This document shows positions 10,429 through 49,894 of a DNA stretch of 64,000 nt, in pieces. The notes below the pieces were generated by a model. The model searched no databases. It was not told where the DNA came from and saw nothing but the letters and a program-made list of their open reading frames with translations. A program made the position numbers and the translations under genes. The DNA is taken from positions 1 through 64,000 of IMG/VR virus record IMGVR_UViG_3300022751_000018; one strand, 5' to 3'. This DNA comes from a virus. Within the stretch, counting starts at the first letter, position 1; every line of letters begins with the position of its first letter.

Positions 10429-10434
10429 ATTATG

Positions 10435-10916: not shown

Positions 10917-11269
10917 AATTTTTAGAAGCGGCGAATAAGTTTAAAAAGATAAGGATGCCTAGCTGGTCAACTATATCTTTTGTAGAAAATGTTAATGGGT
11001 CATTAAAAATTAATTGCATGCTAACAACATCAGACCTTTCATCTGACGACTGGGAAGAATACAAAGAGCCACGCAAGTATCTTGAAAACAACAAGGAAGC
11101 TATGCAGGCTTTGATAGATGGCAAGAAGATTTCTAAAGACGCTTGGGGTGATGGTCGTTTTTTTACTCTTGATAAAGATGGATTTATAGTTGATAAGGAC
11201 GGTGATTATATTGATCCAACATGGCCCACCCCAAATTATCATGGCAAGTTTTATGTTGTTGAGGATTGA
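10913..11269 (+). CDS. DUF2829 (Tad2-like) family small protein
   Basis: N-terminus MKFLEAANKFKKIRMPSW fits the M.F.EAL..LK.GKK.RR..W pattern. DDWEEYKEPRKYL...AMQALIDGKK segment is shared with ORF 27913. Confidence 0.35.
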   Translation: MKFLEAANKFKKIRMPSWSTISFVENVNGSLKINCMLTTSDLSSDDWEEYKEPRKYLENNKEAMQALIDGKKISKDAWGDGRFFTLDKDGFIVDKDGDYIDPTWPTPNYHGKFYVVED

Positions 11270-22828: not shown

Positions 22829-23287
22829 ATGAAAACAGTCATATTTGACCTAGACGGAACGTTGGCGGATGTATCCCATAGGAGACGTTTTAAAGACGAT
22901 GGCTCGTTTGATTGGAAGTATTTTAATGATCCTGAGAATATTAAGAATGACACTCCTAATAAGCCTATAATTGATTTATACAATCATTTTAGGCTTGGAG
23001 AAAAATACAAGTCTGTTGTTCTATCAGGAAGGATGAAGGATCATTTTGATATAACCGTTGATTGGTTTAGAAAGCATGTTGATGCTTACATGTTGATATC
23101 TCACACCATTATTATGAGAGAAATTGGAGACTATCGAGAAGACTATATCATCAAGAAAGAAATGCTAGATAATTTGCTAAGCAAAGGCCACGAAATAGCA
23201 TTCGCAATCGATGATCGGGATCAGATCGTAGAGCTATGGCGTAGTCTTGGTATTACTTGTCTTCAGTGTGCTAAGGGGAATTTTTAA
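22829..23287 (+). CDS. HAD-superfamily phosphatase (Pnk 3-prime-phosphatase-like / nucleotidase-like)
   Basis: Motif I VIFDLDGTLADV. Motif II-like VVLSGR. FAIDDRDQ. Confidence 0.6.
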   Translation: MKTVIFDLDGTLADVSHRRRFKDDGSFDWKYFNDPENIKNDTPNKPIIDLYNHFRLGEKYKSVVLSGRMKDHFDITVDWFRKHVDAYMLISHTIIMREIGDYREDYIIKKEMLDNLLSKGHEIAFAIDDRDQIVELWRSLGITCLQCAKGNF

Positions 23288-27912: not shown

Positions 27913-28284
27913 ATGAACATATATGAAGCAAGTATAAATTTCGAAAAAATAAGAAGAAAGGGATGGCCTACGAAAAATTATCTTATATTAGGATTTAATA
28001 CGAAGATGTTTGAATCAAATTCTATAGATAATGATCAGTATTCTTTATCTTGGGATCAATTACGAGCCAATGACTGGGAAGAGTACAAAGAGCCTAAAAA
28101 GTATTTGACGACTAAAGAGGCTATGCAAGCATTGATTGACGGGAATAAGTTGCAAGCAGATAACTATGATGAAGATATCTTTATTTATCTTTGCGATCAA
28201 GGTCATATTTTGTTTAATCATGGGGCCGAGGCTTTTCCATGTTTCAGCAAAGATAGACAGTTTTACATATACGAGGGTGAATAA
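27913..28284 (+). CDS. DUF2829 (Tad2-like) family small protein, paralog of 10913
   Basis: MNIYEASINFEKIRRKGW. NDWEEYKEPKKYL..KEAMQALIDGNK. Confidence 0.35.
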   Translation: MNIYEASINFEKIRRKGWPTKNYLILGFNTKMFESNSIDNDQYSLSWDQLRANDWEEYKEPKKYLTTKEAMQALIDGNKLQADNYDEDIFIYLCDQGHILFNHGAEAFPCFSKDRQFYIYEGE

Positions 28285-29942: not shown

Positions 29943-31216
29943 TGATTTATTTAAAAAAACAAAAGCCAAACTACATGCAATGGGTTTTGATAAAAACATT
30001 AAATCCTATTGATGGAGATCCTTTTTTCGTTGCACGCCTAATGAGAGATGGATACGAATACTTTGAATGCAAAGCAGGAAATGGTTGTAGGCCAATAGAA
30101 TTTTACGCTGAATTTGTTACGCACTGGCAAGAGCTTCCAAAGGACAATGAAAAATGAAAGTAAAAGAACTGATAGAAATATTGAAAAGCGTTAATCCTGA
30201 GCTTGACGTGGTCATGTCGAAAGATGCGGAAGGCAATAGCTATTCTCCGCTTTCAGATTTTAGTTTTGGAGTATATGAGCCAGAAAGCACGTGGTCGGGT
30301 GACTTTGATATATACATTGATGAAGACGGCACAGCATGTTACACAGAAGAAGAAAGCAATGCAATTTGCCTCTGGCCGGTGAATTAGTATGATTCAAAAT
30401 TACTGGATACTCGGAATCTCACTATTTTTTTCTTTTTATAATATTAACAAGATAAATAAGGGCGATGATGACCGAACTTTAATGATTAATGCACTAGTAT
30501 TTGTTGCGATACACTTTTTGTCACTTTCTGTGATTATATCATGCGATTAAATTACGACGAAGCAGAGGGAAAAGACAAAACGTTTATATTTTTCAGGGAT
30601 CAATTAACAGAGCGCAATATAGCGATGGCTGAGATATTGAATAGTGAAATCAAGAACGACGACGAGTCAAAGCTAAAACTGCTAAACGCTTTTAATTACA
30701 GATTAGAATCATATCAAAGAGACGCGCTAATAGCAGCCGCAAAAAAATTTATAGGTAACAAATGAACTTTTCAGACTTAACAGTATTCGAAGAAACGAAA
30801 AAAACTGATGATTCAATCATTTCTATTACTTCTGAAAACAAAATTATTTTGCGACAAGGATTTATTAGAAATGCACGATGCGATCTTGAGAATATGACTC
30901 ACGTTATATTGAGCTATTCGCAATCTAATAGAGTGATCGTTTTTAACTTTACTGATAATAAGAACGCAAAAGGATCATTTACGCTCAGTAAAGCGACTAA
31001 CACAGAAAACTTTATCATATGCTCAACGCAATTCTTTTCTTTTTTTGAGATAAAAGAGCGCGTATTTGGCAAGTATTTTGCAGAATTGAATAAAATAGGT
31101 GAGAAAGGATATTTCTGGACTATAAACTTGAATAATAAAATAAGATAAGATAATTATTTGGCGAATGCGCGGGGGATTACACCCACCCTTTTAATTAAAA
31201 TATATCAAAATATCTA

Positions 31217-31244
31217 TTGCAATAAATATCCTGTGTGATATTAT
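31217..31244 (+). promoter_or_regulatory. promoter: TTGCAA, 16-nt spacer, TATTAT
   Basis: Same family; upstream ATATCAAAATATCTA. Confidence 0.35.
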
Positions 31245-31478
31245 CTCATTATAACAAGAGCGCAACGAGCGAACGACTTAAAACACAAAGGATATGATTA
31301 TGAACTACACATCAATGTACACCGGAAACACTCTTACTGCCCTTGACCACGAGGGATATTGCAAGCATATGATTGACAGAGAAAACGGAGTAAAAATGGC
31401 TAATGGAAAATTTCCCTCTTGCGCTGAAATAATCAAAGATAACGAAAACGGTCAAATAACGTACTGGGTTGATTTAGA

Positions 31479-31910
31479 TTAAACCTTCCCATTCATAACG
31501 TCTTTGTACATGCTCTCGGCTTCTTCATCGGTGATAGTCGAGACATCCACCTCTTTCGGCTCTTGAGCATCGGGATTGTCCATGAGCATATCTTGAACTA
31601 TTTTAGCATCGGCAGCACCCATCTTTCCGTCTAAAACTGCCTGAGCAAGTTTAAGTTTAATTTCTTCCATATTTTCAGATTTGATTTTTTTAGGCAGGTC
31701 TATGTCTACGCTAGTGTATTTTATTTTTGCAACTAAACTTTCATAGCAAAGTCGCATAGCGATAGGTTGGCCCATTTTAGCTTGCTCAATAACCGCTGAT
31801 ATTATTTCCTCACCCTGGTCCTTCACCATGTTGTAAAATCGCGTGCGCTCGCTTACAGCGCCCTTTGTTCGCCCTTTAGCATTACCGCTCTGTCCTTTTT
31901 TAAATGCCAC
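31479..31910 (-). CDS. hypothetical DNA-binding-like protein (N-terminal KKGQSGNAKGRTKG motif)
   Basis: A lone minus-strand gene inside the plus-strand block. Gly/Lys-rich N-terminus similar to motifs in small terminase-like or DNA-binding phage proteins. Confidence 0.3.
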   Translation of the reverse strand: MAFKKGQSGNAKGRTKGAVSERTRFYNMVKDQGEEIISAVIEQAKMGQPIAMRLCYESLVAKIKYTSVDIDLPKKIKSENMEEIKLKLAQAVLDGKMGAADAKIVQDMLMDNPDAQEPKEVDVSTITDEEAESMYKDVMNGKV

Positions 31911-32218
31911 TGTAAAAACCTTGCATAGTGCAACAATAATTGATCAAATTTTATCCTTACCAGTGAAAATAATCAAGCATCATTAAAAAAATCACTTTTT
32001 ATCGAATTTATGTATATTAAATGATATACAAATTTCGTCCTGCAGGTGATTTTCAATAACAAAACCTAAATAAATTACTGCTATAACAGTAAAAATCGTT
32101 TATTTTCTGATTAAATGACTCAAAAATAAACAAAAATGACCAAAAATACCGCTATAGCAGTAAAAAACAGGGATTTAAGAATCATTTCAATTTATTTCAA
32201 TATTTATCGCATTATCTA

Positions 32219-32246
32219 TTGTATTATATCTCGCTTATGATATTAT
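32219..32246 (+). promoter_or_regulatory. promoter: TTGTAT, 16-nt spacer, TATTAT, with upstream ATCGCATTATCTA
   Basis: Same family. Confidence 0.35.
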
Positions 32247-33506
32247 TATCACATGTAGCCGAGACATGAAACTTAACGAAAAGGAAATTAAAATGATCAG
32301 ATTACAACAACAGTATATTACGGATGGCGAGAATCAGGCGGTTGTATCTTACACATATCATGAGCATTTCGCTGGCAGAAAAGCAGTTATCATGTCGGCC
32401 AAAGCAGAATCAGACTCATTCTACAAAGTAGCCAGAAAAATTATAGGAACTGACGAAAAAGGCGATTACAACTCTTTTCTATGTTATCGCGCAATAATTA
32501 TTTATGAAAACAACCCACTGTATACGCGTGCGGTAGAAATGGCATCAAAATAAGGATTTTAAAATGAGCACAATAAATAAATTGAATGAATTTTTAGCTA
32601 CAAGTGTCGCCGCAATGGATGATGTAACTTTAAGGGCATGGAATGTATTAAGTGATTTTGAAAAGCAATTTATTGCGGCTGGAAGCTTCTATTTCAAAGA
32701 AAACATAAACTCTTTAAAAAGAAAAGATGAGATATTGAAACTTAAATTTAAAAATGTGCCGTTTATTTAATCAAGGAAATCAACATGTATTTTATAGAAA
32801 AAGTAGACATAGAAGCATTAGACGACTACCCGATTTTTGAATCAGAGTATTTAAGCGCAGCGATTGATCAGTGTCGCATTAACTGCGAGAGCTACACATT
32901 CAAAGATCATGAAGCAAGCGTAGCATTTGAAGTGTACAACGATAGATTTGACAAGTTTTTTGAGTTTAAGAAATTTAATATTGAACCGACAATAAGAATT
33001 TCTGATTATGTGACAATAAAAACTCATATTGTTGAGCGAATTGTAGCCAATGCCTCGGGGCAGGCATAGCCCCACTTATTAATAAAGGAGATGAAAATGA
33101 GCGTACTTGATTGTTTAGAAATTAGACTTCCCGCGCATGTGTGCGAAGCGATTAATCGATTGAATGAAATTGAATCTGACGACTACTTAGAGCTAGACGA
33201 GGAGTATTAAAAATGCAAAAAATAAATCTTAACTATGCGAGTGATTATGATTCAATTTTATACAGGTATCTTCGAAGATATAAAACAGCATTGAAAAAAC
33301 TAGGAAAAGATCATGCGGTGATCAATAGAGCCCCGCTTGAAGACGCAATCTTTGGAAGGCCTCTAGACTGGTCGATGAAGAAAGCAGCTCATGAATGGCT
33401 TAAATCGTTCTTAGCGAATGAATTGCTTGAAGATGAGAAAGGCGTTGCTAAATTTATTAGAAATCATCTTTCGCATTAAATATATTGAAATATATCATAA
33501 TATCTA

Positions 33507-33534
33507 TTGTATAATATAATTAGTATGCTATACT
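33507..33534 (+). promoter_or_regulatory. promoter: TTGTAT, 16-nt spacer, TATACT
   Basis: Same family. Confidence 0.35.
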
Positions 33535-34779
33535 TATCCTATGTCAGCGAGACATAGAGCAAACAAAGGAGATGGCAATGGAAAACGTAAGAGTATTTAT
33601 TCAAGTAGGTAATGATAAACAAGACCAACTTTTTCAATTTGAAACAAGATTAGGCTACGTAAGATTTCTAAATTACTTAGAAACAAGAGTGGGTGCGGGC
33701 AAGCATGTAGTAAAAATAATAAGCCCAGAAAGCGAAGAGATGTTTTTTTATGATGAGCTTAAAATGTTTTGCACAAGAGATGAGTATATAAATCTTAGAA
33801 ATGAAATGTATATTGAACAGAGAAATGCGCATGGTTACTACATGAGAACACGATAAAAGGAGATGACAATGTACACAGCAATTTTAAACGTAGGCTATGA
33901 AGAACCGATACAGTCTTTCATAAATAAAGACGATGCTATCAGTAGATCTCGCTTAGTTCTTGAGGGCTACGAATTCGATGAATACGAAAGTTCCGTTAAA
34001 GTTGAAGTTAGAGACGAAAAAGGCATAAAAGTTTGGGAAGATTACAAAGAAAATTTAGACTATTAAAATTTATTAAATAAGGAAATATTAAAATGAACGA
34101 AAATGAATCACTTTATTCTGGCGCGATGTTAGATCAATTTTTTGGAAAAACTGTTCAGCGTAATTTGTGGCCAATTCAGTCTGAAGAAGAAGCCGACGAG
34201 CACTGGGAAGATTTCAAAGAATCAAGAAAACCTATCGAGAATAAAAAATGAAAAATAAATATAGAAAACAAATGGCCGAGGAATACTCAAAAGAGGCTGC
34301 TTACGATGCTACGTACGATGTCATGAAAGCATTTGAATCAATAAAAAAAGAAAGCGGATTAAATAGATCGGCGCATCTTAGAGCAAGAAATTGCGCATAT
34401 TCTGTTGCTTACGACTCTGCTTTTGAGGCTTATTGTAAATCATTAAAAAAAGATGGGCTATTATGAACAAAGAAACTGAATCAAAAATGCTACATGAAAG
34501 AGAGCTTGAGCTTTCATCGAATCTTGAGACTTTGCTTTATGGTCACTTAATAGATGTTAAAGACTCATTGTCTGAGTCATTCGAAACTCTTATGAAATTG
34601 GGCCAAGATAAAACTTTTGGACTTAATTCTGGAACGTGTTTTGAGTCTTATATGCACAATGTTATTGATGTTCTTTTTGACCTTGCATCGATAAGGTCTG
34701 ATTTAGACGATGATAAAAAGATTTATCGCTATTTATTGTCTGCAATTACAAAAGCTAAATACAGACGAGCTTAGATAAA

Positions 34780-35100
34780 ATAATAGTCATTATTTACACA
34801 AAAACCTTTCAAATTATATAATCTTTTATTGATTAATTTTAAATCATTATGAGATTATTTATGTCTATAATTCAATTCTAAAAAAAATTTAAGCAGTAAA
34901 ATTAATTATTTTTAATAAAAGCAAAATTTCAAGTGGGACGTTTACAGGATAAAAAGGGACGTTTACAGGATAGAGTTTTTTCAATTTAAAAAAATCTGTG
35001 GATAAGTGCCACTTTTTCTGTGCATAAGGTTGTGGATAACTTTATTGCCCTGTGGATAAGTCTTTAAATAAAAGACGGATTATTACTCGGTGCTTGATTG
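34780..35100. other. putative origin of replication: AT-rich region, two 17-bp iterons and three perfect DnaA boxes
   Basis: TGTGGATAA at 34997-35005, 35031-35039 and 35051-35059, plus TGTGCATAA at 35019-35027. Iterons GGGACGTTTACAGGATA at 34935-34951 and 34956-34972. AT-rich tract 34800-34930. The region has no credible ORF. Confidence 0.6.
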
Positions 35101-36676
35101 TCATCTCATAAATGCTTGCTTGCTTGCCTTTTTGGAAGCGGCGGCGCTACGCATTTTATTTCGGTTTACGTTGAAAGAATATCTTACTAGAGTACTAGTG
35201 AAGATATTAAGAATAGTATTTTGTTTTTTAAACCTTGTCAATAGGGCAATAGAAAATATATTTTATTTGCGTTGTTTAACTTGATATTTGTTATATATTG
35301 AACTATAATTATCTAGTCATAAGATGATTAATGGGAGTATTTAATATGCAAACTGAGTCTTACACTTTACTAGATAAGGTCAATCAAGCTCGAGAACACC
35401 AAAAAGATTGGCTTGTTAGATGCAAAGAGAAAGGCATTGATATGTCATGGAAAGCGCATGTGGTTAAGAAAAAACCCATTAGTTTCGTTCCTATGAGTAG
35501 CCATAGAACCACCAATTTAGATTGGTAGCAGGAGATTAATTAATGAACACAAACATTTATCAAGTAAATGCGGGCCTTAGAGCTTGCAATCATTTTTCAG
35601 AATCTTACCCAGAAGAATTTACGCCTGAACTTTACGAATTTATTCTATTTTTAGAAGAGCTTAAAAAAGACTTGGAGGATTAATAATGGGATTTAACAAA
35701 AATACTATTTTAAAAAGTATAGAAGATTGTTTTAATAACATAAGCGAATCTGCGATTTGCTTGAATGATGGAAAAAATACAGATAAATGTAGAGAAGACA
35801 TTATTCTAAATGTAATGAATGGTATTCATGAACTTAGATCGCTTGAAAGTGAATTGCATGAAATTAAAGAGTCTATTTTACAATTAATGTATTGAGGTTA
35901 AATTATGAACTTACCTGAAATAATGAAAAGTGGTGATTATAAAAACGAAAGTTATGAATATTTTCTAACAAATAAGTCAGGGCATGAAGAAGATTTTGTT
36001 TTCTATTCAAGTAGCCTTCTATCTAAATGGGGATTTAATGACGGCGATACTTGGAGTGAAGAAAGCCTAGAAACTATTATTAATCAGTTTATTTTGCCTA
36101 ATTTAGATCAAAAAGTTGAAATATGTCACATATCGACTTCACACAATCCTTGGCGGGCAGAATCCATTGATGGCGTTGAAGTGCATCAATATTGGAGTGA
36201 TTACGAAAAATGCCCCGTAAAGATTACCCCGGAATTTTTATTTTTTAAACAAAAAGACATTTGGAAAGCATTAATTGAAAAAAGAGATAAAATATGAGCT
36301 TATTCGATAAAATTGATATTACAGATCGAGGCATTGATCAGATTGACAATATAAGGCATATTTTTAAGAAAATGGACGCTTATATTGACAGAATTATGCT
36401 AAAAGATATCGAAGGCACAAGCTCACGTTATAAAAGAGAGTTTGATATATGCAAGCAAAAACTTGAAGAAGCATGCTTTTATGCGATTAAATCTTGTTGC
36501 ATTAAAAATAGAAAATAATATATAATGCGCTTGAGTCTATAGCTTAATTTTAAAGCACCGTTTTTATAAGGGTGATCCTAAGGGTGAACAGTTTAGGTGG
36601 GCTCACAATCTGATCTACATTTAGTGTAGAAACAGTACCTGAGATCGTTATGCGATCACTGCTTTTAAATATTAAA

Positions 36677-36686
36677 AAGCATGCTT
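36677..36686. repeat. AAGCATGCTT palindrome copy 1
   Basis: AAAAAGCATGCTTATTA. Confidence 0.5.
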
Positions 36687-36923
36687 ATTAATAACATTGA
36701 TTTTTTTGAATTATGGCATTGGGGTTTAGCGTCTAGAAGCCATGACCCCTAAGCCACCAAATTATTGAATTATGGGAGTGAAGTTTGAATACTTGTTTGA
36801 TCGACAAGAACTATAAAACCTGCTGAGGTGCACCCTTGTAGCCTCCCACTTTTTTACCCGATTAGCGCCAGGCCACTACGGCCACGGCTCCACCGTAAAT
36901 ATGGGGATATCGGACCAATTTAT

Positions 36924-37000
36924 GATCTTGTTCGTCTAGCCCAAGACGCTGCGCATCTCGTATGAGACGCGGTACGTGGATTAAAGAAGCCACACAAGGT
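36924..37000 (+). ncRNA. degenerate tRNA-like element: acceptor stem and Glu/Asp-like D arm, with the anticodon arm replaced by a long hairpin
   Basis: Acceptor ATCTTGT/ACAAGGT. TCGTCTAG D-arm signature. Hairpin GCGCATCTC-GTAT-GAGACGCG. Confidence 0.3.
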
Positions 37001-37012
37001 CAACTTTTTTAT

Positions 37013-37085
37013 GATTTTGTTCGTCTAGTAGACTAGGACACCACTGGGTCACGGTGGAAACGTCGGAGCACATCCGGCACAAGAT
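37013..37085 (+). ncRNA. degenerate Glu/Asp-like tRNA (pseudo-tRNA). Anticodon loop GGGTCAC, T loop AGCACAT.
   Basis: Acceptor ATTTTGT/ACAAGAT. D arm GTCT..GGAC identical to the tRNA-Glu pattern. Non-canonical residues 32/33 and non-canonical T loop. Confidence 0.3.
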
Positions 37086-37097
37086 CAACCTTTTTAT

Positions 37098-37170
37098 GCG
37101 ATAGTAGCTCAATTGGCAGAGCGCCTGGTTTCCACCTAGGAGGTTGCACGTTCAACTCGTGTCTGTCGCT
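37098..37170 (+). tRNA. tRNA-Gly (anticodon TCC)
   Basis: Acceptor GCGATAG/CTGTCGC. D arm GCTCAATTGGCAGAGC. Anticodon arm CCTGG-TTTCCAC-CTAGG. T arm GCACGTTCAACTCGTGT. Confidence 0.7.
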
Positions 37171-37177
37171 AATCTTT

Positions 37178-37251
37178 CCGTCAATCGTATAATGGCATTA
37201 CCTTGGCCTCCAAAGCCAAAGATTTGAGTTCGATTCTTAATTGACGGGCCA
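37178..37251 (+). tRNA. tRNA-Trp (anticodon CCA), CCA encoded
   Basis: Acceptor CCGTCAA/TTGACGG. Anticodon arm TTGGC-CTCCAAA-GCCAA. T arm TTGAGTTCGATTCTTAA. Ends GCCA. Confidence 0.7.
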
Positions 37252-37265
37252 TATTCAATACAAAA

Positions 37266-37275
37266 AAGCATGCTT
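37266..37275. repeat. AAGCATGCTT palindrome copy 2
   Basis: AAAAGCATGCTTATAT. Confidence 0.5.
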
Positions 37276-37344
37276 ATATTTTTGTTAGCAAATGTAATTA
37301 CAAAAAACCATAGTTGCATTTAAGGCTCTAAATGTAATTATAAA

Positions 37345-37354
37345 AAGCATGCTT
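37345..37354. repeat. AAGCATGCTT palindrome copy 3
   Basis: AAAAGCATGCTTTAAA. Confidence 0.5.
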
Positions 37355-37675
37355 TAAATTAAGCAGGTAATAAAAAACGATTTTACCTACTTAACACGAT
37401 TTTACCTACTTCTTTACCTTAATATTAGTGCAAACATATAATTATCGCTAAATTAATCATAATAACCATTGCTTTTGCATTAATATAAGGATATAGTTTA
37501 ATTATAAAAAGGAGGGTTAAAAATGACCTTACAAGAAATACACGACGAGTTAATTGACTTAAGAAAGAAAGAGTCAGAAGTTTTTGATGATAGAGGATTA
37601 TATTTTGCTATAAGCGCTTGCGCAGATTCTTTTTCTTGCTATAGAACTATTTTAAACGAAAAAGGAGAATGATAA

Positions 37676-38011
37676 ATGTTTGTATATTTCGATGACTTTA
37701 ATTGCAGTGATATGATTGTAAATAAAACAGAAAAGCAGTCTTTTGGAAGGTTGTCAAAAAAATTCTTGGTTAAGAATGATATAGATTTAAAAAATAATTT
37801 AAAGGTAAAATTTTTAATAAACAGTGAAAATATTAATGAAATTGGAATCTGTTTTTTAAAAAATCAAGGGGGCTTAAATCCACAAAATAATCAATTTTTT
37901 ATTAGCAAAAAGTTAAACATAGAAAAAGGGCATTACAGATTGGTAAAAAATACTTCTGATTCAATAGGTGTTTTTTTTGTTATTGAAAAAATAAAGGAGA
38001 ATGAGAAATGA
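37676..38011 (+). CDS. hypothetical protein
   Basis: 111-aa ORF with the conserved AAGGAGAATGATAAATG start context. Confidence 0.35.
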   Translation: MFVYFDDFNCSDMIVNKTEKQSFGRLSKKFLVKNDIDLKNNLKVKFLINSENINEIGICFLKNQGGLNPQNNQFFISKKLNIEKGHYRLVKNTSDSIGVFFVIEKIKENEK

Positions 38012-38172
38012 AAAATATTGAATGGTTGACTGTTATATTTTTTCTTGGCATGGAGTTTTTTGCTTTTTCTATATTAGTATTTTTTGCAATATCATTCCCA
38101 CTGTCTTTATTTGCCAGCATACCATTTTTTATTGCGTGGACAGCTTGGGGCATTCAGATTACCTTTTACTTA
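38008..38172 (+). CDS. small hydrophobic membrane protein (54 aa, two transmembrane segments)
   Basis: Same conserved start context AAGGAGAATGAGAAATG. Confidence 0.3.
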
Positions 38173-38207
38173 TAAATAAAAATAGTATTCACTAAGGATA
38201 ATGAGAA

Positions 38208-38378
38208 ATGAAAAAAATAGAAATACATTTGGTAGACGTTATTTTTAACTACGAATATCAAGAAGATTTTGACGAAGATGATGCAAGCAAAAGTGCTGAA
38301 ATTCTTTTAAAGAATCATCTTGATAAATTAAAAGGTATATCATACGAAATTGACTGTACTTATTTTTGTAACGAATAG
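38208..38378 (+). CDS. small acidic hypothetical protein (56 aa)
   Basis: Same conserved start context AAGGATAATGAGAAATG. Confidence 0.3.
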   Translation: MKKIEIHLVDVIFNYEYQEDFDEDDASKSAEILLKNHLDKLKGISYEIDCTYFCNE

Positions 38379-38750
38379 TAGCCACTATATAACACAAGAC
38401 GTATTCAATACGCTGGCCCGAGGCTGCCTTAGCCTAAAATTTTAAAATTGGAGTTATTATGCACACATTAACACCTGAAGCTTATGCTAATATTCAATTG
38501 TTTCAGAGGATAGCTGAGAAAAAGCGACGTCAAGAAATTAAAAAAGCTAATCATGAATACAAAATGCAATTTTTCAAAAAAGGTATTGACTGCATTGAGA
38601 TGAAAGACATGTCAAAAAATAAACAATTATTAAGCGAAGAATCAAATAAAAATATTTCCACTTTGCTTAATAAAGAGAAGACAGAAGACAACTGGAGTAT
38701 ATTTGTGCATAAAGTACCCAAATAATGGACATAGACAAATATTTTATAAT

Positions 38751-38760
38751 AAGCATGCTT
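38751..38760. repeat. AAGCATGCTT palindrome copy 4 (18-bp palindrome TAATAAGCATGCTTATTA)
   Basis: Lies downstream of the stop of 38459..38725. Confidence 0.5.
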
Positions 38761-39043
38761 ATTATCGGGCCATCAATAATTTTAATCGCAATTTTTTTAA
38801 TGTAAGGAAAGTAAATGAAAAACAAGACACTTTGTATTTGTATTGCATCAATTGTAATTTCCGCATCAATTTCTTATGTTTTATACTCAAAACATAGGGT
38901 AACTCAGCAATGTGAGCGAGCTTATGATAACTATATAGACTATATGAAAGACATAAATAAGATAGCTATTGACAATGGGTTTGGCGAGCAGTCCGTAGTT
39001 TCTCTTTATCAATTTTGTAAAAATTAAAATAATAAGCATGCTT

Positions 39044-39053
39044 ATTTAAGGGG
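39044..39053. repeat. AAGCATGCTT palindrome copy 5
   Basis: Downstream of the stop of 38815..39027. Confidence 0.5.
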
Positions 39054-39371
39054 CCGACATGTGCAGAAGCGATGATCCTAGTTTCTACGATCCAGACTGG
39101 GAATCAATTGAAAGAGAGAAAATAGTGCTTAGGCGTGATTTAGAAGAAGACTATGCGGACAATATTAACGATGAGGAGTGGCTTAAAAATGAAAGAAATT
39201 AAAAAACGATGCAAAGATTATGTAAAAAAAAGATACACATTTGGATGCACGGTTTCGATGACCTCAAGGGTAGGTGAAGTAGAAGTTACTTTAACAGCTA
39301 GAAGCATTGAAGACCTTCTAAGGCTTAATGATGAGCTGACAAAAAGAGCTGCAAATAATAAAGAGCATTAA

Positions 39372-39381
39372 AAGCATGCTT
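39372..39381. repeat. AAGCATGCTT palindrome copy 6
   Basis: Directly follows the stop of 39153..39371. Confidence 0.5.
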
Positions 39382-39753
39382 ATTTATTAGTGATTAAAGC
39401 TTACTGATGAGTTAATATTTAAAACTTAATAACCAGGAGAAATTCAATGTCAGAAAATTTAAAAATTAATCCAATTCAAGAATCTTTCAAGATTCAAGAG
39501 CTTATAAATGAGAATGCTAGATTGAATGGAGAGCTTAGCTTGACAATGTCAAAGCTTAACCAATCAAAGGGCATGACTCAGAATTTAATTATTCAGCTTA
39601 CTGATCTTCATGGAGAGCTAGAGGTTCTACGTGAAATTAATAATTTTGCAAAAAATATGAATGAAAATAAGGAAAACATAACCCCAGATTCCAATGAAGA
39701 AATTAATGAACCTATTTCCCCTCAGGATATTAAAGAAACAACTGCTGAATAAT

Positions 39754-39763
39754 AAGCATGCTT
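39754..39763. repeat. AAGCATGCTT palindrome copy 7
   Basis: Directly follows the stop of 39447..39752. Confidence 0.5.
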
Positions 39764-39774
39764 ATTTTTATTCT

Positions 39775-39800
39775 AGGGCGTAAATTTAAATACGCCCTGA
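39775..39800. terminator. bidirectional hairpin AGGGCGTAAATTTAAATACGCCCT between convergent genes
   Basis: 8-bp GC-containing stem between the plus-strand gene ending at 39752 and the minus-strand gene ending at 39806. Flanked by T and A tracts. Confidence 0.45.
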
Positions 39801-39805
39801 ATTAA

Positions 39806-40000
39806 TTAAGGATCAAGGCCAAGCTCGGCGCATCTCTGTGCGTACAATTCATAATCTGTAAATGTTTCCATTTCCTCAAGACCCGTAGTCATACACTGGT
39901 CCGGGTCTACTTTTCCATTAGCGTAAATAGTTTCGTTTTCATTGACCACCGTGTACGCAATAAAATACGTAGTTACAAGTGGATAGTTGATTTCGTGCAT
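39806..40000 (-). CDS. hypothetical small protein downstream of the fibre genes (possible fibre assembly factor)
   Basis: 64-aa ORF whose start overlaps the upstream stop. Confidence 0.3.
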   Translation of the reverse strand: MHEINYPLVTTYFIAYTVVNENETIYANGKVDPDQCMTTGLEEMETFTDYELYAQRCAELGLDP

Positions 40001-41049
40001 TATGGCGTCCCCGCGTCAGTAATAAACCAGAATTTTTGAATTAAAGCGTCTCGGCCTGCGATAGCATTAGCCCCTGAATAATGGGCGCTGCCTGCGCTAA
40101 ACGTAACGCCGTTTTGCACTGTTGCCTGCGAAGGCCAGCCGGTTGTTATGTCTAAAAGTTTGTTATAATTTGTAATTGAAAACGCGGAGCCTGTCATCAT
40201 GTTTGCCGCATTAACTAATGCTGAAATACTTAAAAAGCTAACATCTTGATCAAAAGACGCGGCGCCTGAAAACATTAAATCAAAACGCGTGCATAATGTC
40301 GTTGTTCCAAAATTTGTTAGTGGCTGATTAAACGGAGTGTTTTGAAACATGCCGTCACATCTAAGCATTACTGTTGAGTTTAAATTTATCGCGCTATTCA
40401 TGGCAGTGTTTCTAAACATACTGGCATACGAGTTACTTAGCGGAGCGTTGATAGTAACCGGAGAGTTAAAGCTTGTAGCTCCATCTAAAAATGATCCTAT
40501 GGAAGTTGCAAGTGGAGCTTGAATGTTGATCGGCATATTAAATAATACGCAGCTACCGCCTAAAAAGTTTCCAATACTCGTAACGTTACGAAAATTCCAC
40601 TGATTTAAGCTGGGGATTGTTGTGAGCGATGCGCAGCCGAAAAAAAACTGGGTCATGCTCGTAGTTAAACTTAAATCTAAAATATCCGTAGCCGTTATTT
40701 CTAGGTTTGAGCATCCTCGGAATACTCCTGTGCCAGTGACCGGCTTAAAACTTCCCCATCGAGAAATTTCTATAATTTTCAAAAAATTACCCGTGGCGTT
40801 AAATAAAAGTCCGTTAACTTTTCCTGAAATTACTATCGTATAGACGCCTGGCTCTGGGTATATGTGCTCCCATTGCGGATCATTATACGTAGTGATAGTT
40901 GATGACGTACCATCTCCCCAAGCAACAATGCAGTTGTACGATCCAGTGCTTATTGCCGGGAAGATGAACAAATCGTTATCTTCAATGCCAGCGCCAAGGC
41001 TCGTGTCTACTGTAAACGTAAAATTTGAAATTATTCCTCCTGACATCAT
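40000..41049 (-). CDS. tail fibre / receptor-binding-like protein with DUF285 (BspA-type) repeats, paralog A
   Basis: Repeats of the form F.GCSNL...T......MF.GC.SL..IP.LN.WN. Conserved N-terminal block (NC.VAWGDGTSSTITTYND..W.H.YP.PGVYT) and C-terminal block (MMTGSAFSITNYNKLLD.TTGWPSQA) shared with 41049..42449. Confidence 0.5.
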   Translation of the reverse strand: MMSGGIISNFTFTVDTSLGAGIEDNDLFIFPAISTGSYNCIVAWGDGTSSTITTYNDPQWEHIYPEPGVYTIVISGKVNGLLFNATGNFLKIIEISRWGSFKPVTGTGVFRGCSNLEITATDILDLSLTTSMTQFFFGCASLTTIPSLNQWNFRNVTSIGNFLGGSCVLFNMPINIQAPLATSIGSFLDGATSFNSPVTINAPLSNSYASMFRNTAMNSAINLNSTVMLRCDGMFQNTPFNQPLTNFGTTTLCTRFDLMFSGAASFDQDVSFLSISALVNAANMMTGSAFSITNYNKLLDITTGWPSQATVQNGVTFSAGSAHYSGANAIAGRDALIQKFWFITDAGTP

Positions 41050-42449
41050 TAGGGGCTACCTCCGTCCGTAATTGTCCATAAATTAACCGATGTGAGAATA
41101 TTTCTTCCAGTTGTTGGGTTCCCCACGCTGTAATGAGCAGTTCCAGCGCTAAACACAACGTTATTTTTTCTAACCGCTTGAGATGGCCAGCCCGTCACAG
41201 AATCAAGCAATTTATTGTAATTCGTAATATTAAACGCGGATCCTGTAAACATAGTCGCAGCTGATGTTAAATTTGCAATTATCCATAAACTTACATCGGG
41301 ATTTGCCAATGTCGCACCGTTGAACATACTAGTAAACGTTGTCGCAGCATTGGTTAAAAGAGAAATTGTATTGTTAAACGCAACTGCTCCTTGCAAGAAA
41401 GAAAGAAAAGTCGTGCAAAGTGGCGTATTAAAACTAATCGGTTGGTTGAATGAAACACAGTTAAAGAAAAATGAGTTCATCAATGTCACTGCCGCCAACG
41501 TCAATGTTATAGAGCTATTAAATGCAGTAGCGCCATTTAAAAAGCTATTCATCGCCGTGCAATTAGGAAGATTGAAGTTGATCGGTTGATTAAACGAAAT
41601 AGCATTAAAAAACATAACGCTTGCATTCGTAACATTCGTAAAAGTGCCAAGATTAGCGACCGACTGATTAAATGCAGGACAATTTTGAAACATAGCTGAT
41701 ATTGAATTAACAGTAGTTGAATTTAATACGACAGCACTATTAAAAATAGTGCATCCCAATAAAAAAGACGCATAAGACGAGCACGAAGTGGCATCAATAG
41801 TAATCGGTGAATTGAGCTTAATACAATCTCGAAACATTAAATCAATAGTTGTGTTTACTGTAACCCTGATATTTATAGTCATGTTAAGATTTGAGCATCC
41901 TAAAAAACATGAACCGAATGAAATAATATTTAAAAAATTCCATCGGTTAAAGTTGGGTATAGAAACAAGTGATGCGCATCCTGAAAAATATAAATCCATT
42001 CTGTTAGCGCCGGTCATATCAACAATATCTTGCGCAGATATTACTAAGTTAGCGCATCCAGCGAATGCACTGGATTGTTGATTGAATCTAAATGCGCCCC
42101 ATCTCAATATATTTAATAACTTTAATCTATCAGAGTTTGCCGAGCCAAATTGAATGCCATAGAAAATACCAGAAATAACAACTGTATAAACACCTGGCGA
42201 TGGATAGGTGTGAGTCCACGCCGCATCATTAAAAGTGGTAATAGTAGATGTAGTGCCGTCGCCCCATGAAACGACGCAATTGTAAGAACTTCCAGCGCCG
42301 CCGACTGTTGGAAACTTTATTTGATTGCTAGCCGAAGACCCGGTGCTAGTTTTCGTAGTGTCCCATACGGTCGTAAAATTTCTGTTAACGCATCCTGATA
42401 TAATACTCATGAAATTCTCGTCATTTTTATTGAGCCAAAGCCAACGCAT
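41049..42449 (-). CDS. tail fibre / receptor-binding-like protein with DUF285 repeats, paralog B (longer repeat array)
   Basis: Multiple (A/S)FNQ(P/S)I and MF..C..L repeats. Termini homologous to paralog A. Confidence 0.5.
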   Translation of the reverse strand: MRWLWLNKNDENFMSIISGCVNRNFTTVWDTTKTSTGSSASNQIKFPTVGGAGSSYNCVVSWGDGTTSTITTFNDAAWTHTYPSPGVYTVVISGIFYGIQFGSANSDRLKLLNILRWGAFRFNQQSSAFAGCANLVISAQDIVDMTGANRMDLYFSGCASLVSIPNFNRWNFLNIISFGSCFLGCSNLNMTINIRVTVNTTIDLMFRDCIKLNSPITIDATSCSSYASFLLGCTIFNSAVVLNSTTVNSISAMFQNCPAFNQSVANLGTFTNVTNASVMFFNAISFNQPINFNLPNCTAMNSFLNGATAFNSSITLTLAAVTLMNSFFFNCVSFNQPISFNTPLCTTFLSFLQGAVAFNNTISLLTNAATTFTSMFNGATLANPDVSLWIIANLTSAATMFTGSAFNITNYNKLLDSVTGWPSQAVRKNNVVFSAGTAHYSVGNPTTGRNILTSVNLWTITDGGSP

Positions 42450-44158
42450 GAGCCAACAGAAAATGTCGGCTTACCTTTTAGATATAACGCTCCATCGGAA
42501 GTTGTTGAAAAAGTAAATGTTACGATTCCCGCTGTTGACCTAGCGCTTGCTCCAGCAACAAAAGGTGTCGCCCATGCCGTAGTTTCGTCATCTTGTCCTG
42601 CGGTTGATGTGCCTGAAGCCGTTCCTACAAACGCTTCTAAAACCGTTGATGTGATTGTCGTTCCTGCAAAACTTAAATTAGCAGATACCGCCCAATTCCC
42701 TTTTGTGTAATTAAGTGTCGTAACGGGCGTTACTGTCGCAGTCGGCAAGGAAACAGCAGAGGCGAAGGGCACTAGAGCTTTCAACACTTCTCCAACATAG
42801 CCTGTCGGCGGAGTTAAGCCCGTTATTATTCCTAAACCGTTTGATGAGTAACCCGTCCATCCTGTAGCCGTACCATTTATAGTAATTACGGTTGACTGCA
42901 ATGCAGTTGATCCGATCGTTGGGGAGTAACTGTTAGATGTTGACCATACTATATTTGCCCAAGAAACAGTTCGTCCGCCCACTGCATCTTGAATTAATTC
43001 TACGTTAAATTGACGGTCTTGTGTGCCTGTTGGAATTGCTGCTAGCGTGATTACACAGTTTCCGGTCAACGTGATTTTTTGATATGGTCCGTTAGCGGGA
43101 TCAATAGTTATCGCGGTGCCTGAGTTAGCAGAAAAAACTGTAATCGTGTCAACTGCGCCGGTGTGATCGATTGTCGGCGTAGTTATTTTTGTTACGAATG
43201 TCGGAGAAGTGTTAAATACTGCAACACCTGTGCCCGTCTCATCCGTCAGTGCCGCAAGTAAATTTGCAGAGCTTGGTGTAACTAAAAAAGTATTCACGCC
43301 AGTACCGGGAACAGTAGGCCCGTATTGTACGTTCCACTGTGCCGCTGTCGTGCCGACAATTGCGTTGCAAGTTAAAAGCACATAAGTTTTAGCCTGCATT
43401 ATCTGAATCACACTGCCGCCTACGCTGTAGAGAGTAGTTAGCGCAGTGCTATTGTTCGAAAAATAGTATTGTTTTCCGACGTACAATCCCGTGACTGCTG
43501 GTGCTGTTATATCTTGATTGATAGTCCCAGTAACATTTTGGATAGTCGCGCTGACGCTTGTTAATGTAACAATTGAAGCCGAAGAAACAATTGTATTGTA
43601 TGGAAGTTGCCCTTCCCATGATGTTTGGCCGCGATAAATTGTTAGACCTGGAGTCGTTCCGAAGGTTCCGTTAAATAAATTTGTGTAAGCTAAGTTTGAT
43701 GATCCAATCGCCACTGCGGGTGATTGAAGATAAAAAGCATCTCCACCATTTACGGTGCCTTGTTGTACAACGATATAGCCGACGGAGTTAATCTTTTCAA
43801 TTGTGTCATAATTTGTCGCTCGCTCAAGAACCGCAGGTGCTCCCGCTGAGCTGACTTTTAAAAGATAAATACCATTTGCATGTCCGCCATAGGTAGTATC
43901 GTTTTTATACAGTATGTTAGTCAAAGGCGGCGTTACACCGTCCATGTCAAAAACTCCATTCGATGGAGCGGTTAACGTCGCGCCTACGCCGTCTACTCCA
44001 TTGTCGTACACGTAGCCTGTTAGATTAGCTGTTGACGCCAAAAACACGCTAGCTTGACCTCCGCCACTTCCGCTGCCGCCACCGCCTCCGCCAGAGCCAT
44101 TAAGATTTACCCCAAAAACAGCGCATAGATAGAGAAAAGTACTATAATTTAAAGTCAT
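42407..44158 (-). CDS. large fibre-like protein with N-terminal signal-peptide-like segment and Gly-rich linker
   Basis: MTLNYSTFLYLCAVFGVNLNGSGGGGGGSGSGGG, followed by a Thr/Ser/Gly/Asn-rich beta-type sequence 583 aa long. Confidence 0.4.
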   Translation of the reverse strand: MTLNYSTFLYLCAVFGVNLNGSGGGGGGSGSGGGQASVFLASTANLTGYVYDNGVDGVGATLTAPSNGVFDMDGVTPPLTNILYKNDTTYGGHANGIYLLKVSSAGAPAVLERATNYDTIEKINSVGYIVVQQGTVNGGDAFYLQSPAVAIGSSNLAYTNLFNGTFGTTPGLTIYRGQTSWEGQLPYNTIVSSASIVTLTSVSATIQNVTGTINQDITAPAVTGLYVGKQYYFSNNSTALTTLYSVGGSVIQIMQAKTYVLLTCNAIVGTTAAQWNVQYGPTVPGTGVNTFLVTPSSANLLAALTDETGTGVAVFNTSPTFVTKITTPTIDHTGAVDTITVFSANSGTAITIDPANGPYQKITLTGNCVITLAAIPTGTQDRQFNVELIQDAVGGRTVSWANIVWSTSNSYSPTIGSTALQSTVITINGTATGWTGYSSNGLGIITGLTPPTGYVGEVLKALVPFASAVSLPTATVTPVTTLNYTKGNWAVSANLSFAGTTITSTVLEAFVGTASGTSTAGQDDETTAWATPFVAGASARSTAGIVTFTFSTTSDGALYLKGKPTFSVGSCVGFGSIKMTRIS

Positions 44159-44170
44159 TTTTTTTACCTT

Positions 44171-44428
44171 TTAAGCTGGATTGTTAGGGATAAATTTTGA
44201 CCACCCAGTAATCGAGGTGCCATCATTATAGATAGTCTGAACATACGTAACATTATTTTCTGGTTTAGGAGGGTTTGCGTTTGTAAGACCCTGATATATC
44301 ACTGTTATAGTTTTAGTAAACGTATTTTCTCCAACTGTTTCTGTGGTTAATGTTGCACCGCCTGATTCTAAAGCCGTGGTAAGGTCCATGGATAAATAAA
44401 AAGAAGTGGCTTGTGATTGTGCGCTCAT
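44171..44428 (-). CDS. hypothetical small protein at the start of the fibre module
   Basis: 85-aa ORF. Confidence 0.3.
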   Translation of the reverse strand: MSAQSQATSFYLSMDLTTALESGGATLTTETVGENTFTKTITVIYQGLTNANPPKPENNVTYVQTIYNDGTSITGWSKFIPNNPA

Positions 44429-44606
44429 CTAAATTGCCTCAAATATAAAAACTTATTTCAATAGGTTAGATGATACGGTAAAAAAAAAGTGTTTAAAATA
44501 AGCCCTACCTGTAAGTACAGGCACTTATTTTTTCAATAATTAAAGTATTTTAATGATGGAAGGCATAATTCATGATAAATGGGTTATTAATGGAGCCTGA
44601 ATAAAA

Positions 44607-44762
44607 TTAGCTAAGATTTTCGCTCAGTTTTTTTGAAACTTCTCTGAGATTAGAGATCTTAGCTCGAAAGTGAAAAGGTATTTGTGTTAAATGATTTATC
44701 TCTTGCTCAATTAGATCAATTATAATCTTTAGCTGATAGTCGGTAAATTCTATTTTTTTCAT
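44607..44762 (-). pseudogene. downstream frame of the split TetR-like gene (MKKIEFTDYQLKIIIDLIEQ...), start overlapping the upstream stop (ATGA)
   Basis: 51-aa ORF in another frame beginning within the A7 homopolymer. It may be a genuine frameshifted C-terminal domain, a pseudogene or a coupled small ORF. Confidence 0.25.
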
Positions 44763-45058
44763 ACAAACAAAATTTCTTTAAGCTTTTCTTGGATTTCCGG
44801 TGATAATCCAGAGAAAACAAGTGTTCTATCAAGAATTCCTTCTATGATAATGGAATATTCTAAATCTTCGACTGCCTTCTTAAAAATCAGATCTTTTAAA
44901 GTATCAACTGAGTAAAATACTCCGTAAAATTGCGCATTGCAAATTCCTAACTTACGCCCAATTTTGTAAGTTGTAGTTTTTTTAACTCCTATTTCTTTTG
45001 CCATTTCATAAGCGGCATCAAAAATTGGTTTTTCCCATTTTTTGGTCTTTACAATCAT
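44759..45058 (-). CDS. TetR-family regulator, N-terminal HTH part (gene split at an A7 run)
   Basis: IGVKKTTTYKIGRKLGICNAQFYGVFYSVDTLKDL fits the TetR HTH signature. The ORF ends at TGA inside GTATGAAAAAAATAG, where a second frame starts. Confidence 0.45.
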   Translation of the reverse strand: MIVKTKKWEKPIFDAAYEMAKEIGVKKTTTYKIGRKLGICNAQFYGVFYSVDTLKDLIFKKAVEDLEYSIIIEGILDRTLVFSGLSPEIQEKLKEILFV

Positions 45059-48837: not shown

Positions 48838-49085
48838 AAAAACAGATATTAACTTATCTAGGAAATATGATAGCGTCATTTAAAGAGCAGGATAGGCTTG
48901 AATCTTTATGTGTTGCAAATTCATTAAAGACCTTTGTTGAGAAATTAAACGATCCCATAGTTGAAAGTAATTTTTCTTTTTATGAAAAACGAAATATTAT
49001 CAATTCTATTGGGTATGCCGTTCAAGAAGAAATTTTTAATGAAAAAACAGGGTTTCAACTAATTAAAAAGGTTTGCGAATTATGA
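48834..49085 (+). CDS. hypothetical protein
   Basis: 83-aa ORF. Confidence 0.3.
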   Translation: MKKQILTYLGNMIASFKEQDRLESLCVANSLKTFVEKLNDPIVESNFSFYEKRNIINSIGYAVQEEIFNEKTGFQLIKKVCEL

Positions 49086-49894
49086 GAACTGAAAAATTTA
49101 TATCAAAAGATGGATTCGAAATTCAACAGTTTGATAGTGGCGAGTGGGATGTTCGCCTAATCGACTGCAAAAATTTAAACACTGAAGTTATTTGGAACTG
49201 GTTTAAAGAGCCAGATATTATGATTCCTTTGCTTAAGGCAGATTGCATACGTCAAGTATTTGGGCTAGTTGAATTGACTTTGATTTGCAAATATCTTCCT
49301 TATTCAAGGCAGGATAGAGCTTTTAATTTAGGACAAGGAATACCTGCCCAAAGGATTGTTAGAACTTTGTTTAATCAGTTTGAATCAATAGAAACAATGT
49401 GCCTTCATAACTTTCCAATTCCTCATGATGGCGACGAAAGAATTTACAATGAATTTATTGAAATTAATAATAACAAAATAATTGTTTTTCCTGATAAAAA
49501 TGCCCCAAGACATTTTAATGTTAATGACTCAGTTCCTCATATAATGCTTGAGAAAATTAGGTCAGAAAATGGTATAAAATCTGAAATAACTTGCGAAAGT
49601 CTTCCTGATGGTGTTTCTGAGTTTGATATAAATGAATCATTTTTAATATGTGATGATATATGCGATGGGGGAAGATCCTTTGTAGAATGCTCTGAAAAAT
49701 TAAAAGAAAGATTCGGTCATGATATTAAAATAGAACTTTTAGTAGCGCATGGATTTTTATCCCGTGGTTTAGAGACATTAAAAGCAAGCGGTATATCAAA
49801 GATATATATAGCCAATTATGACTCTTACGAATATTTACGAGATAAATTCAATGATGATTATATTGAATTTCTTGGCCTCCAAATGCCATTTTAA
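49073..49894 (+). CDS. ribose-phosphate pyrophosphokinase (Prs)-like enzyme; candidate ADPR-PP synthetase (Adps) of NARP1
   Basis: LPYSRQDRAF (Prs N-domain motif). PRPP-binding loop FLICDDICDGGRSF. Shorter (273 aa) than housekeeping Prs. Directly upstream of the NAMPT-like gene. Confidence 0.55.
   Translation: MRIMRTEKFISKDGFEIQQFDSGEWDVRLIDCKNLNTEVIWNWFKEPDIMIPLLKADCIRQVFGLVELTLICKYLPYSRQDRAFNLGQGIPAQRIVRTLFNQFESIETMCLHNFPIPHDGDERIYNEFIEINNNKIIVFPDKNAPRHFNVNDSVPHIMLEKIRSENGIKSEITCESLPDGVSEFDINESFLICDDICDGGRSFVECSEKLKERFGHDIKIELLVAHGFLSRGLETLKASGISKIYIANYDSYEYLRDKFNDDYIEFLGLQMPF

Follow-up and report, generated by a model that had tools for sequence, protein, structure and literature searches.

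The locus upstream of tRNA-Gly and tRNA-Trp

The stretch of viral DNA studied here, 64,000 nucleotides (nt) in length and called the window below (positions 1 to 64,000 of IMG/VR record IMGVR_UViG_3300022751_000018), belongs to an AT-rich tailed phage with a GC content of ~33%. It contains a ~1-kb locus, bounded by a stop codon at 36518 and an ATG at 37523 (36519-37522), that is free of + strand open reading frames (ORFs) longer than 45 amino acids (aa). Two canonical tRNA genes on the + strand are called there by both ARAGORN and the Rfam tRNA model (RF00005, gathering threshold 29 bits), namely tRNA-Gly(UCC) (37098-37170; discriminator U, no encoded CCA, 61.2 bits) and tRNA-Trp(CCA) (37178-37251; discriminator G, CCA encoded, 55.1 bits). 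Directly upstream of these genes and on the same strand lies, with spacers of 7-14 nt, an array of tRNA-derived, non-decoding structured modules, which is real and statistically non-random. The ORF-free locus, the two genuine tRNAs and the tandem tRNA-like modules ahead of them had all been recognized in an initial annotation, and the sequence features quoted there are present with an offset of at most one base. We split the region into nine units, M1-M7 followed by tRNA-Gly and tRNA-Trp. M3-M7 are arranged head to tail with 6-14 nt of A/U between them, each closed by its own terminal helix, and GC content is 46-61% per module and 47% over M3-M7 against a background of 33%. Every module has an A discriminator, which is followed by CCA, CC or C.

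M6 (36924-37002, + strand) and M7 (37013-37087, + strand) are the only modules with the cloverleaf of a canonical tRNA, each having a minimum free-energy fold of 26 pairs. They share acceptor stems and the D-arm sequence TTCGTCTAG, which occurs exactly twice in the window (36931 and 37020); the initial annotation had identified both elements, with 3′ ends (37000 and 37085) one base short of the full 36924-37001 and 37013-37086. M6 displays an 8-base-pair (bp) acceptor, a D arm of the form GUC(U)/(A)GAC, a D loop, UAGCCCAA, without the AGG that holds G18 and G19, a 4-bp T stem with the 10-nt T loop AUUAAAGAAG, and the discriminator A37002. Its anticodon arm is replaced by a 10-bp hairpin with a GUAU tetraloop, which is found, as had been described, from 36951 in the form GCGCATCTC-GTAT-GAGACGCG. 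M7 likewise has an 8-bp acceptor, with the D loop UAGUAGACUAG (A18 G19), the anticodon loop GGGUCAC (GUC with G32 and G33), the T loop AGCACAU and the discriminator A37087; the two latter loops, which had also been singled out (GGGTCAC and AGCACAT in the DNA), begin at 37046 and 37067. In the predicted fold of M7, the changed loop bases add closing pairs, and the D, anticodon and T loops shrink to 4, 5 and 5 nt. The two modules are 95% identical over their first 21 nt and 90% over their last 21 nt, with differing middles, and are spaced 89 and 85 nt start to start. M7 further matches the architecture of E. coli tRNA-Glu (UC, 3-bp GUC/GAC D stem, A26 and 4-nt variable region), and its positions 8-48 are 73% identical to that tRNA. 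The two modules are tandem paralogues that go back to a tRNA-Glu/Asp-type gene, M6 being derived from tRNA-Glu and M7 from tRNA-Glu/Asp.

Both modules have lost U33, G18 and the T-loop consensus. U33 is universal in tRNAs, and the identity element of tRNA-Asp is G73. M6 and M7 resemble canonical tRNAs in their cloverleaf outline, acceptor stems, tRNA-Glu-type D arm, leader and spacing, but differ from them in lacking U33, G18, T54, Ψ55 and A58, in their shortened or replaced loops and in the 8-bp acceptor. In M1, M6 and M7, the anticodon loop never combines a length of 7 nt with U33 and a purine at 37, and none of the three modules carries the full set of elbow nucleotides (G18/G19, T54-Ψ55-C56 and A58). 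A 398-nt Rfam search (36700-37097) gave no tRNA match for M3-M7 at E<=10, M1 stays below the 29-bit threshold at 24.7 bits, and ARAGORN picks up M7 only once its threshold is lowered to 85%, where ~4 false calls arise per shuffled 64-kb window. A normal tRNA score for all modules, which the initial annotation had named as contradicting its proposal, is therefore clearly not what is seen. Several other RNA classes were considered and rejected. ARAGORN finds no tmRNA gene (option -m, relaxed threshold included) and rejects an intron-containing tRNA (option -i), neither bacterial Y RNA (YrlA) nor any other Rfam family matches over the modules at E<=10, and the M6 hairpin, with its single 2-nt bulge, has no bulge-helix-bulge of the kind expected in an archaeal-type splicing substrate for RtcB.

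The remaining modules have simpler or less regular forms, and the cloverleaf is absent from M3, M4 and M5, which have fewer arms. M5 (36856-36916, + strand) forms a three-way junction whose closing helix is CCGAU/AUCGG (36858-36862 with 36909-36913); its 5′ UAGCGC is tRNA-like, its two hairpins are rich in GC, its 3′ tail is ACC and its overall GC content is 61%. M3 (36715-36759, core 36723-36759, + strand) is a tRNA minihelix, in which a 7-bp acceptor-like stem (GGUUUAG/CUAAGCC) encloses a loop that keeps the D-arm motif CGUCUAG and is followed by the 3′ tail ACCA; the 37-nt minihelix ending in ACCA that had been reported earlier lies 1 nt from the position then given. M4 (36774-36849, + strand) is closed by GGGAG/CUCCC (5 bp) and includes two hairpins, one resembling an anticodon arm (CUUGU-UUGAUCG-ACAAG) and the other of 8 bp, with a 3′ tail AC followed by U6. 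The further GC-rich segments noted previously are present as well (GGTGCACC at 36827 and CCAGGCCACTACGGCCACGG at 36868). M1 (36533-36605, + strand), which was absent from the earlier list, is a sub-threshold tRNA-like element (Rfam E = 0.015) of 40% GC that starts 15 nt past the stop codon of ORF 36294-36518. The element combines a 7-bp acceptor, a good D arm with the D loop AAUUUUA, an imperfect anticodon arm with a broken stem and a 9-11-nt loop containing UUA/UAU, and an 11-nt T loop, and is without G18G19 and T-Ψ-C; the mitochondrial mode of ARAGORN labels it "Stop(tta)". M2 (36606-36714, + strand) is a spacer of low GC (28%) with three small hairpins, comprising a terminator-like site (36643-36667) and a copy of the palindrome AAAAGCATGCTT (36675-36686).

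Non-random structure and a shared leader

Comparison with 2000 dinucleotide shuffles, using an 8-bp closing stem, three arms and 26 pairs as the criterion, sets M6 and M7 apart from chance: the fold is reached by 0 of the 2000 shuffles of either, and a cloverleaf of any kind arises in only 0.1-0.2%, as it does for genuine tRNAs. The three-way junction of M5 is likewise recovered in 0/2000 shuffles, and M3 has a z-score of -3.0 to -3.4, with 0/200 shuffles folding as well. The + strand of M7 folds at -23.9 kcal/mol (z = -2.6), as against -11.9 kcal/mol (z = +0.95) for the - strand, on which its fold collapses, and the opposite strand was accordingly rejected as the functional one. The conserved ends of M6 and M7 differ at three positions, and two of these changes switch a G.U pair to a Watson-Crick pair or the reverse (pairs 3-70 and 4-69). 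Since such switches keep the pairing only in the + strand RNA, they argue for selection on RNA structure.

The distribution of changes in these modules points the same way. In M7, 5 of the 12 loop nucleotides regarded as near-universal are gone, while 21 of 21 canonical cloverleaf pairs are kept, a combination with a joint P of <=1e-4 at any rate in a decay simulation with uniform substitution, which presumes a canonical ancestor and uniform mutation. In an ordinary, decaying tRNA pseudogene, mutations would be expected in stems and loops alike, with broken helices as the result, whereas the stems of M6 and M7 are fully intact, with 26 of 26 predicted pairs kept. With the stems preserved while the loop nucleotides are gone, the structure looks selected. 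The simulation, the strand-specific fold of M7, the switches between G.U and Watson-Crick pairs and the raised GC content of M3-M7 together indicate that selection on RNA structure maintains M5-M7 at least. The initial annotation had left open whether the array was being degraded or repurposed; plain degradation is disfavored for M6 and M7 on these grounds, and is plausible for M1 and M4.

A short leader, TTAT/G, precedes M3, M4, M6, M7 and tRNA-Gly, and elsewhere in the window also precedes tRNA-Asp, tRNA-Met and a tRNA-like element at 10434. The longer conserved spacer that had been proposed to stand before each module does not have that distribution: AYCAACYTTTTTATG, allowing at most one mismatch, occurs in the window only at 36999 and 37084, after M6 and M7, where it represents the 3′ end and trailer of the two paralogues, part of it being the duplicated 3′ strand of the acceptor. 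The spacer between M6 and M7 (ACUUUUUUAU, 37003-37012, + strand) ends in the UUAU/G leader, and that between M7 and tRNA-Gly is ACCUUUUUAU (37088-37097, + strand). The notion of conserved processing sites therefore survives for the short leader and fails for the long spacer. The ATG in the leaders of M6 (36921-36938, + strand) and M7 (37010-37027, + strand) also opens the same five-codon frame, MILFV-stop (ATG-AT(C/T)-TTG-TTC-GTC-TAG), in which the lone C/T difference between the modules is synonymous, and a frame in M3 (36713-36736, + strand) reads MALGFSV-stop and ends in the same GTC-TAG. Peptide coding was rejected for all three modules because they have no Shine-Dalgarno sequence, while real genes have one (e.g., AGGAGG before the start at 37523); we treat these frames as a coincidence arising from the UAU/G leader and the UAG of the D loop.

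Flanking elements and genome context

Reading of the sequence suggests a candidate sigma-70-like promoter, TTGCAT-18 nt-TATAAT (36497-36526, + strand), between the upstream ORF and M1, with its -10 box ending 7 nt ahead of the first base of M1. Together with the terminator-like site in M2, this means that M1 and M2 may be transcribed separately, as a small RNA whose promoter and terminator-like hairpin are its own. On the other side of the locus, two copies of AAAAGCATGCTT (37264-37356) lie directly 3′ of tRNA-Trp and possibly mark the end of the unit. The palindrome, in its extended form (A)AAAGCATGCTT(AT), has eight sites in the window, all of them within 3.3 kb (36467-39765), which amounts to 16 strand-wise matches against 1.4 expected; several copies come right after stop codons, two just past tRNA-Trp and one between M2 and M3. 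It is also found six times, after stops and before ribosome-binding sites, in IMG/VR contig 3300005434_000004 (locus L119, 6536-9115), which has 34% GC, shows no protein similarity to the window and is unrelated. The palindrome may act as a weak terminator, mark a processing site or function as an operator. Further downstream, a 19-nt direct repeat, AAMACGATTTTACCTACTT, is present twice in tandem (37374-37442, + strand), and a third TTTACC directly after the repeats forms the -35 box of TTTACC-18-TATAAT, the only + strand promoter called in our scan, located upstream of ORF 37523. These repeats and the promoter look like an operator or iteron arrangement.

A second tRNA cluster (10191-10429) holds tRNA-Asp (10271-10346), tRNA-Met and an odd tRNA-Leu(UAA) (10191-10265, + strand; 46.4 bits), which is only 75 nt long, is without the long variable arm and, as read by eye, has three G.U pairs in the anticodon stem and U at position 37, features unusual for a bacterial-type tRNA-Leu. 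Right after tRNA-Met comes a fourth tRNA-like gene (10434-10506, + strand) with a 6-nt anticodon loop and the T loop UGCGAUU. It is missed by the gathering-mode Rfam scan and by default ARAGORN, is reported as "tRNA-??? (ga)" by ARAGORN at a 95% threshold and scores 35.9 bits with the Rfam tRNA model in a sensitive run. This element might act as a tRNA of the frameshift type or, alternatively, be a further non-decoding mimic.

The module locus sits among small + strand ORFs in a window that also encodes terminase, portal, MuF, protease, major capsid, baseplate and tail fiber proteins. Of more direct relevance are an RtcB RNA ligase gene split by an intein with an HNH endonuclease (16673-18796, + strand) and a separate gene for a PNKP-type HAD phosphatase (22829-23287, + strand). 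These make up an RNA-repair toolkit, suggest exposure to tRNA- or RNA-cleaving defenses and, taken with the literature on defense at tRNA loci, they suggest that tRNA damage matters to the life of this phage. The window additionally codes for a nicotinamide phosphoribosyltransferase (NAMPT; 50144-51820, + strand), which adjoins an ORF with a weak, below-cut-off match to Pribosyl_synth, a phosphoribosyl-pyrophosphate-synthetase-like domain (49073-49894, + strand); the pair looks like an NAD-salvage module of the type reported against NAD-depleting defenses. Two small ORFs (10913-11269 and 27913-28284, both + strand) have weak matches to a Tad2-like (Thoeris anti-defense 2) domain, at 20.9 and 20.7 bits under the Pfam cut-off of 25. 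Adjoining a 583-aa tail fiber are paralogous neighbors of 349 and 466 aa (40000-42449, - strand), which are probably receptor-binding proteins and thereby a possible clue to the host. A related tail fiber, followed by a Pfam DUF285 protein, is present on a 29-kb contig (L114, Logan SRR29078195) whose terminase is 50% identical.

Mimicry, relics and other readings

We tentatively place first a reading in which the locus is a co-transcribed tRNA operon and the extra modules are excised by tRNA-processing enzymes as non-decoding tRNA mimics; the modules are probably processed tRNA look-alikes of non-translational use and not simple junk. The closed units, U-rich spacers, U at -1, G at +1 and A discriminators give the array the layout of a polycistronic tRNA precursor. 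The modules would be transcribed together with tRNA-Gly and tRNA-Trp, host RNase P would cut their 5′ ends at UUAU/G, and 3′ maturation would occur in the U-rich spacers by RNase E, RNase Z or exonucleases, to be followed by completion of the CCA. The predicted products are compact, presumably stable tRNA-shaped RNAs, which could not function on the ribosome because they are without U33 and the elbow nucleotides, and which may act in trans. Selection would have kept every helix of M6 and M7 and added closing pairs, with U33 and the elbow nucleotides (G18, T54, Ψ55 and A58) being replaced. We posit tRNA mimicry as the likeliest role, with the RNAs occupying some tRNA-binding protein in a manner comparable to that conceivable for the stable RNAs of phage T4.

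The tRNA cluster of T4, as annotated, ends with these stable RNAs, rnaD and rnaC, which abut tRNA-Arg. They are structured non-tRNA RNAs (rnaC, species 1, 139 nt; rnaD, species 2, 119 nt) encoded on the same strand as the tRNAs with 1-6-nt spacers, and RNase P matures them together with the tRNAs; we know of no function ascribed to either. The modules described here similarly form part of a phage tRNA cluster, sharing the strand of the tRNA genes and abutting them. The T4 RNAs, too, have tRNA-like parts, rnaC ending in a T-arm-like hairpin within its terminal helix. However, rnaC keeps a canonical UUCGAAU T loop, whereas the T loops of the modules are all non-canonical, and T4 has two longer RNAs where the present array has five shorter modules, two of them full cloverleaves. 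The folds differ, and blastn against phage records that include T4 gave no sequence match to rnaC or rnaD.

Several observations weigh against the mimicry reading. Searches of GenBank phages, IMG/VR, JGI metagenomes and GTDB genomes recovered no homologue for any of the modules, so that cross-species conservation and covariation lend them no support. In these searches, blastn with 36400-37500 against 50,697 phage records returned a sole match, of a tRNA-Pro to the tRNA-Gly segment, and megablast with 30000-45000 against GenBank phages returned nothing beyond chance. In IMG/VR, each of the 59 matches to the pattern GATYTTGTTCGTCTAG lies in unrelated coding sequence, the core patterns of tRNA-Trp and tRNA-Gly have no match, and an acceptor-pair pattern for tRNA-Trp has 50 chance matches. 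The M6/M7 end pattern is without a match in JGI metagenomes, where a 20-mer from M5 has three chance matches in coding DNA of 66-73% GC, and the GTDB genomes yielded one chance match. The phage lineage is effectively a singleton in the databases searched: GenBank phages include nothing close to it, comparison with 5.8 billion proteins gave the adjacent 130-aa ORF and the 583-aa tail fiber no full-length match other than themselves, exact look-ups for proteins of the window returned no record, and the nearest terminases, ~50% identical, come from ~40-45 kb phages with an E217/Pa193-like structural module. tRNAs are absent from the retrieved stretches of the terminase relatives (L114, L117 and L118), as they are from those of two contigs reached via another tail-fiber match, P0009 (L115 and L116), and of DUF285 relatives (L060-L062). 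Within the locus itself, the candidate promoter at 36497-36526 matches 3/6 positions of the -35 box and is not called in the consensus scan, and the scan shows no clear terminator after tRNA-Trp. The fold of M1 is not unusual, being matched by 65/2000 shuffles, M4 is not significantly structured (z = -1.2; topology matched by 9/2000 shuffles), and the module architectures are heterogeneous, ranging from minihelix and three-way junction to cloverleaves, as deletions in decaying tRNA genes would give. The presumptions of the decay simulation noted above belong on this side too.

Many of the same points favor the strongest rival, a genuine but lesser possibility in our estimate, namely that the modules are relics of tRNA genes that were segmentally amplified, perhaps under past defense pressure, and are now pseudogenes, maybe still transcribed and processed as by-products. 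A precedent exists in phage T6, in which segmental amplification of the tRNA locus, of the SegB type, under defense pressure was followed by instability (PMC13096335). M6 and M7 are tandem duplicates with near-identical ends, Rfam scores are sub-threshold or absent, no conservation was found in the databases searched, and, beyond the variety of shapes, decay seems to rise upstream, where M1 and M2 have low GC and M1, like M4, has a weak z-score. Against the relics stand the 26 pairs kept in both M6 and M7 despite the lost loop nucleotides, a pattern with P<=1e-4 under uniform decay, and the changes in M7, which build extra closing pairs in three loops instead of breaking stems. Moreover, a tRNA-level GC content persists in a 33% GC genome, and ~380 nt of dead sequence would be unusual for a densely packed phage genome.

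A further proposal, attractive but in our view unlikely, is that the modules are tRNA decoys that titrate or inhibit tRNA-targeting effectors such as anticodon nucleases and CCA-end modifiers. Phage tRNAs are known to counter tRNA-cleaving defenses, as in the case of the T5 tRNA-Lys against PARIS and tRNA-Tyr against retron Eco7 and Septu (PMC11464382, PMC11555353, PMC13096335, PMC10264068), and changes in the anticodon loops of phage tRNAs are predicted to evade nucleases (PMC10264068). The present locus shares with such counter-defense loci its place in a phage tRNA locus, the tandem duplication, the altered anticodon loops and the presence of RtcB and the PNKP-type phosphatase in the genome. 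On the decoy hypothesis, the zipped-up loops, the 8-bp acceptor and the loss of the U33 cleavage context would harden the modules, with M7 mimicking tRNA-Asp/Glu and M3 an ACCA acceptor end, alongside replacement tRNAs, RtcB and PNKP. In the known systems, however, a functional, chargeable phage tRNA replaces the cleaved host tRNA, whereas the modules cannot plausibly decode, so any counter-defense role would have to be that of a decoy or inhibitor, which is not described for phage-encoded RNAs in the literature that we found on counter-defense by phage tRNAs.

It is improbable that the modules are no more than cis-acting processing or stability elements, a form of "punctuation" that RNase P and RNase Z would recognize and that defines or protects the ends of neighboring mRNAs and of the tRNA-Gly/Trp precursor without a role in trans. 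The close spacing of M1 behind ORF 36294-36518 and the leader common to the modules and genuine tRNAs are compatible with this, and there is an established precedent in the t-elements of plant mitochondria, which these two enzymes recognize and which are tRNA-like without being tRNAs (PMC1920247). However, t-elements and mascRNA are single eukaryotic elements that flank mRNAs or lncRNAs, whereas here a tandem array is found in the tRNA operon of a bacterial virus; five modules in a row far exceed what end formation needs, and tRNA-Gly and tRNA-Trp should be processable without them, as in the cluster at 10191-10429. In addition, with a candidate promoter between the upstream ORF and M1, the latter need not belong to that mRNA.

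Finally, that these are unusual working tRNAs, charged and active in translation, M7 serving as a tRNA-Asp(GUC) resistant to nucleases and M1 as an ochre suppressor or tRNA-Ile, is very hard to credit, since M7 has G33, A for G18, no T54-Ψ55 or A58, A in place of G73 at the discriminator, no Rfam tRNA match and an ARAGORN call at the level of false matches, a canonical tRNA-Asp already exists at 10271-10346, the anticodon stem of M1 is broken, and the window ORFs read normally in the standard bacterial code (table 11), on which ground M1 was also rejected as a server of stop-codon recoding. These points outweigh the 7-nt anticodon loop of M7 with GUC, A37 and C38 as in tRNA-Asp, the labels given by relaxed ARAGORN (Asp for M7, Stop(tta) for M1) and the nuclease-evading loop changes known in phage tRNAs (PMC10264068).

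Phage tRNA loci have recently come to be seen as counter-defense loci, and only functional tRNAs have been studied in them so far. Should the modules prove to be relics, they would still show clearly how tRNA genes have been amplified and have decayed in a previously unsampled phage lineage; should they be decoys, they would represent an RNA-based counter-defense distinct from the supply of functional tRNAs. If non-decoding tRNA-shaped RNAs are indeed selected in tRNA loci, as we tentatively favor, then phages may also use tRNA mimicry. This would bear on the fifty-year-old question of the role of T4 rnaC and rnaD, and it would mean that a class of phage small RNAs escapes the standard tRNA finders and Rfam.

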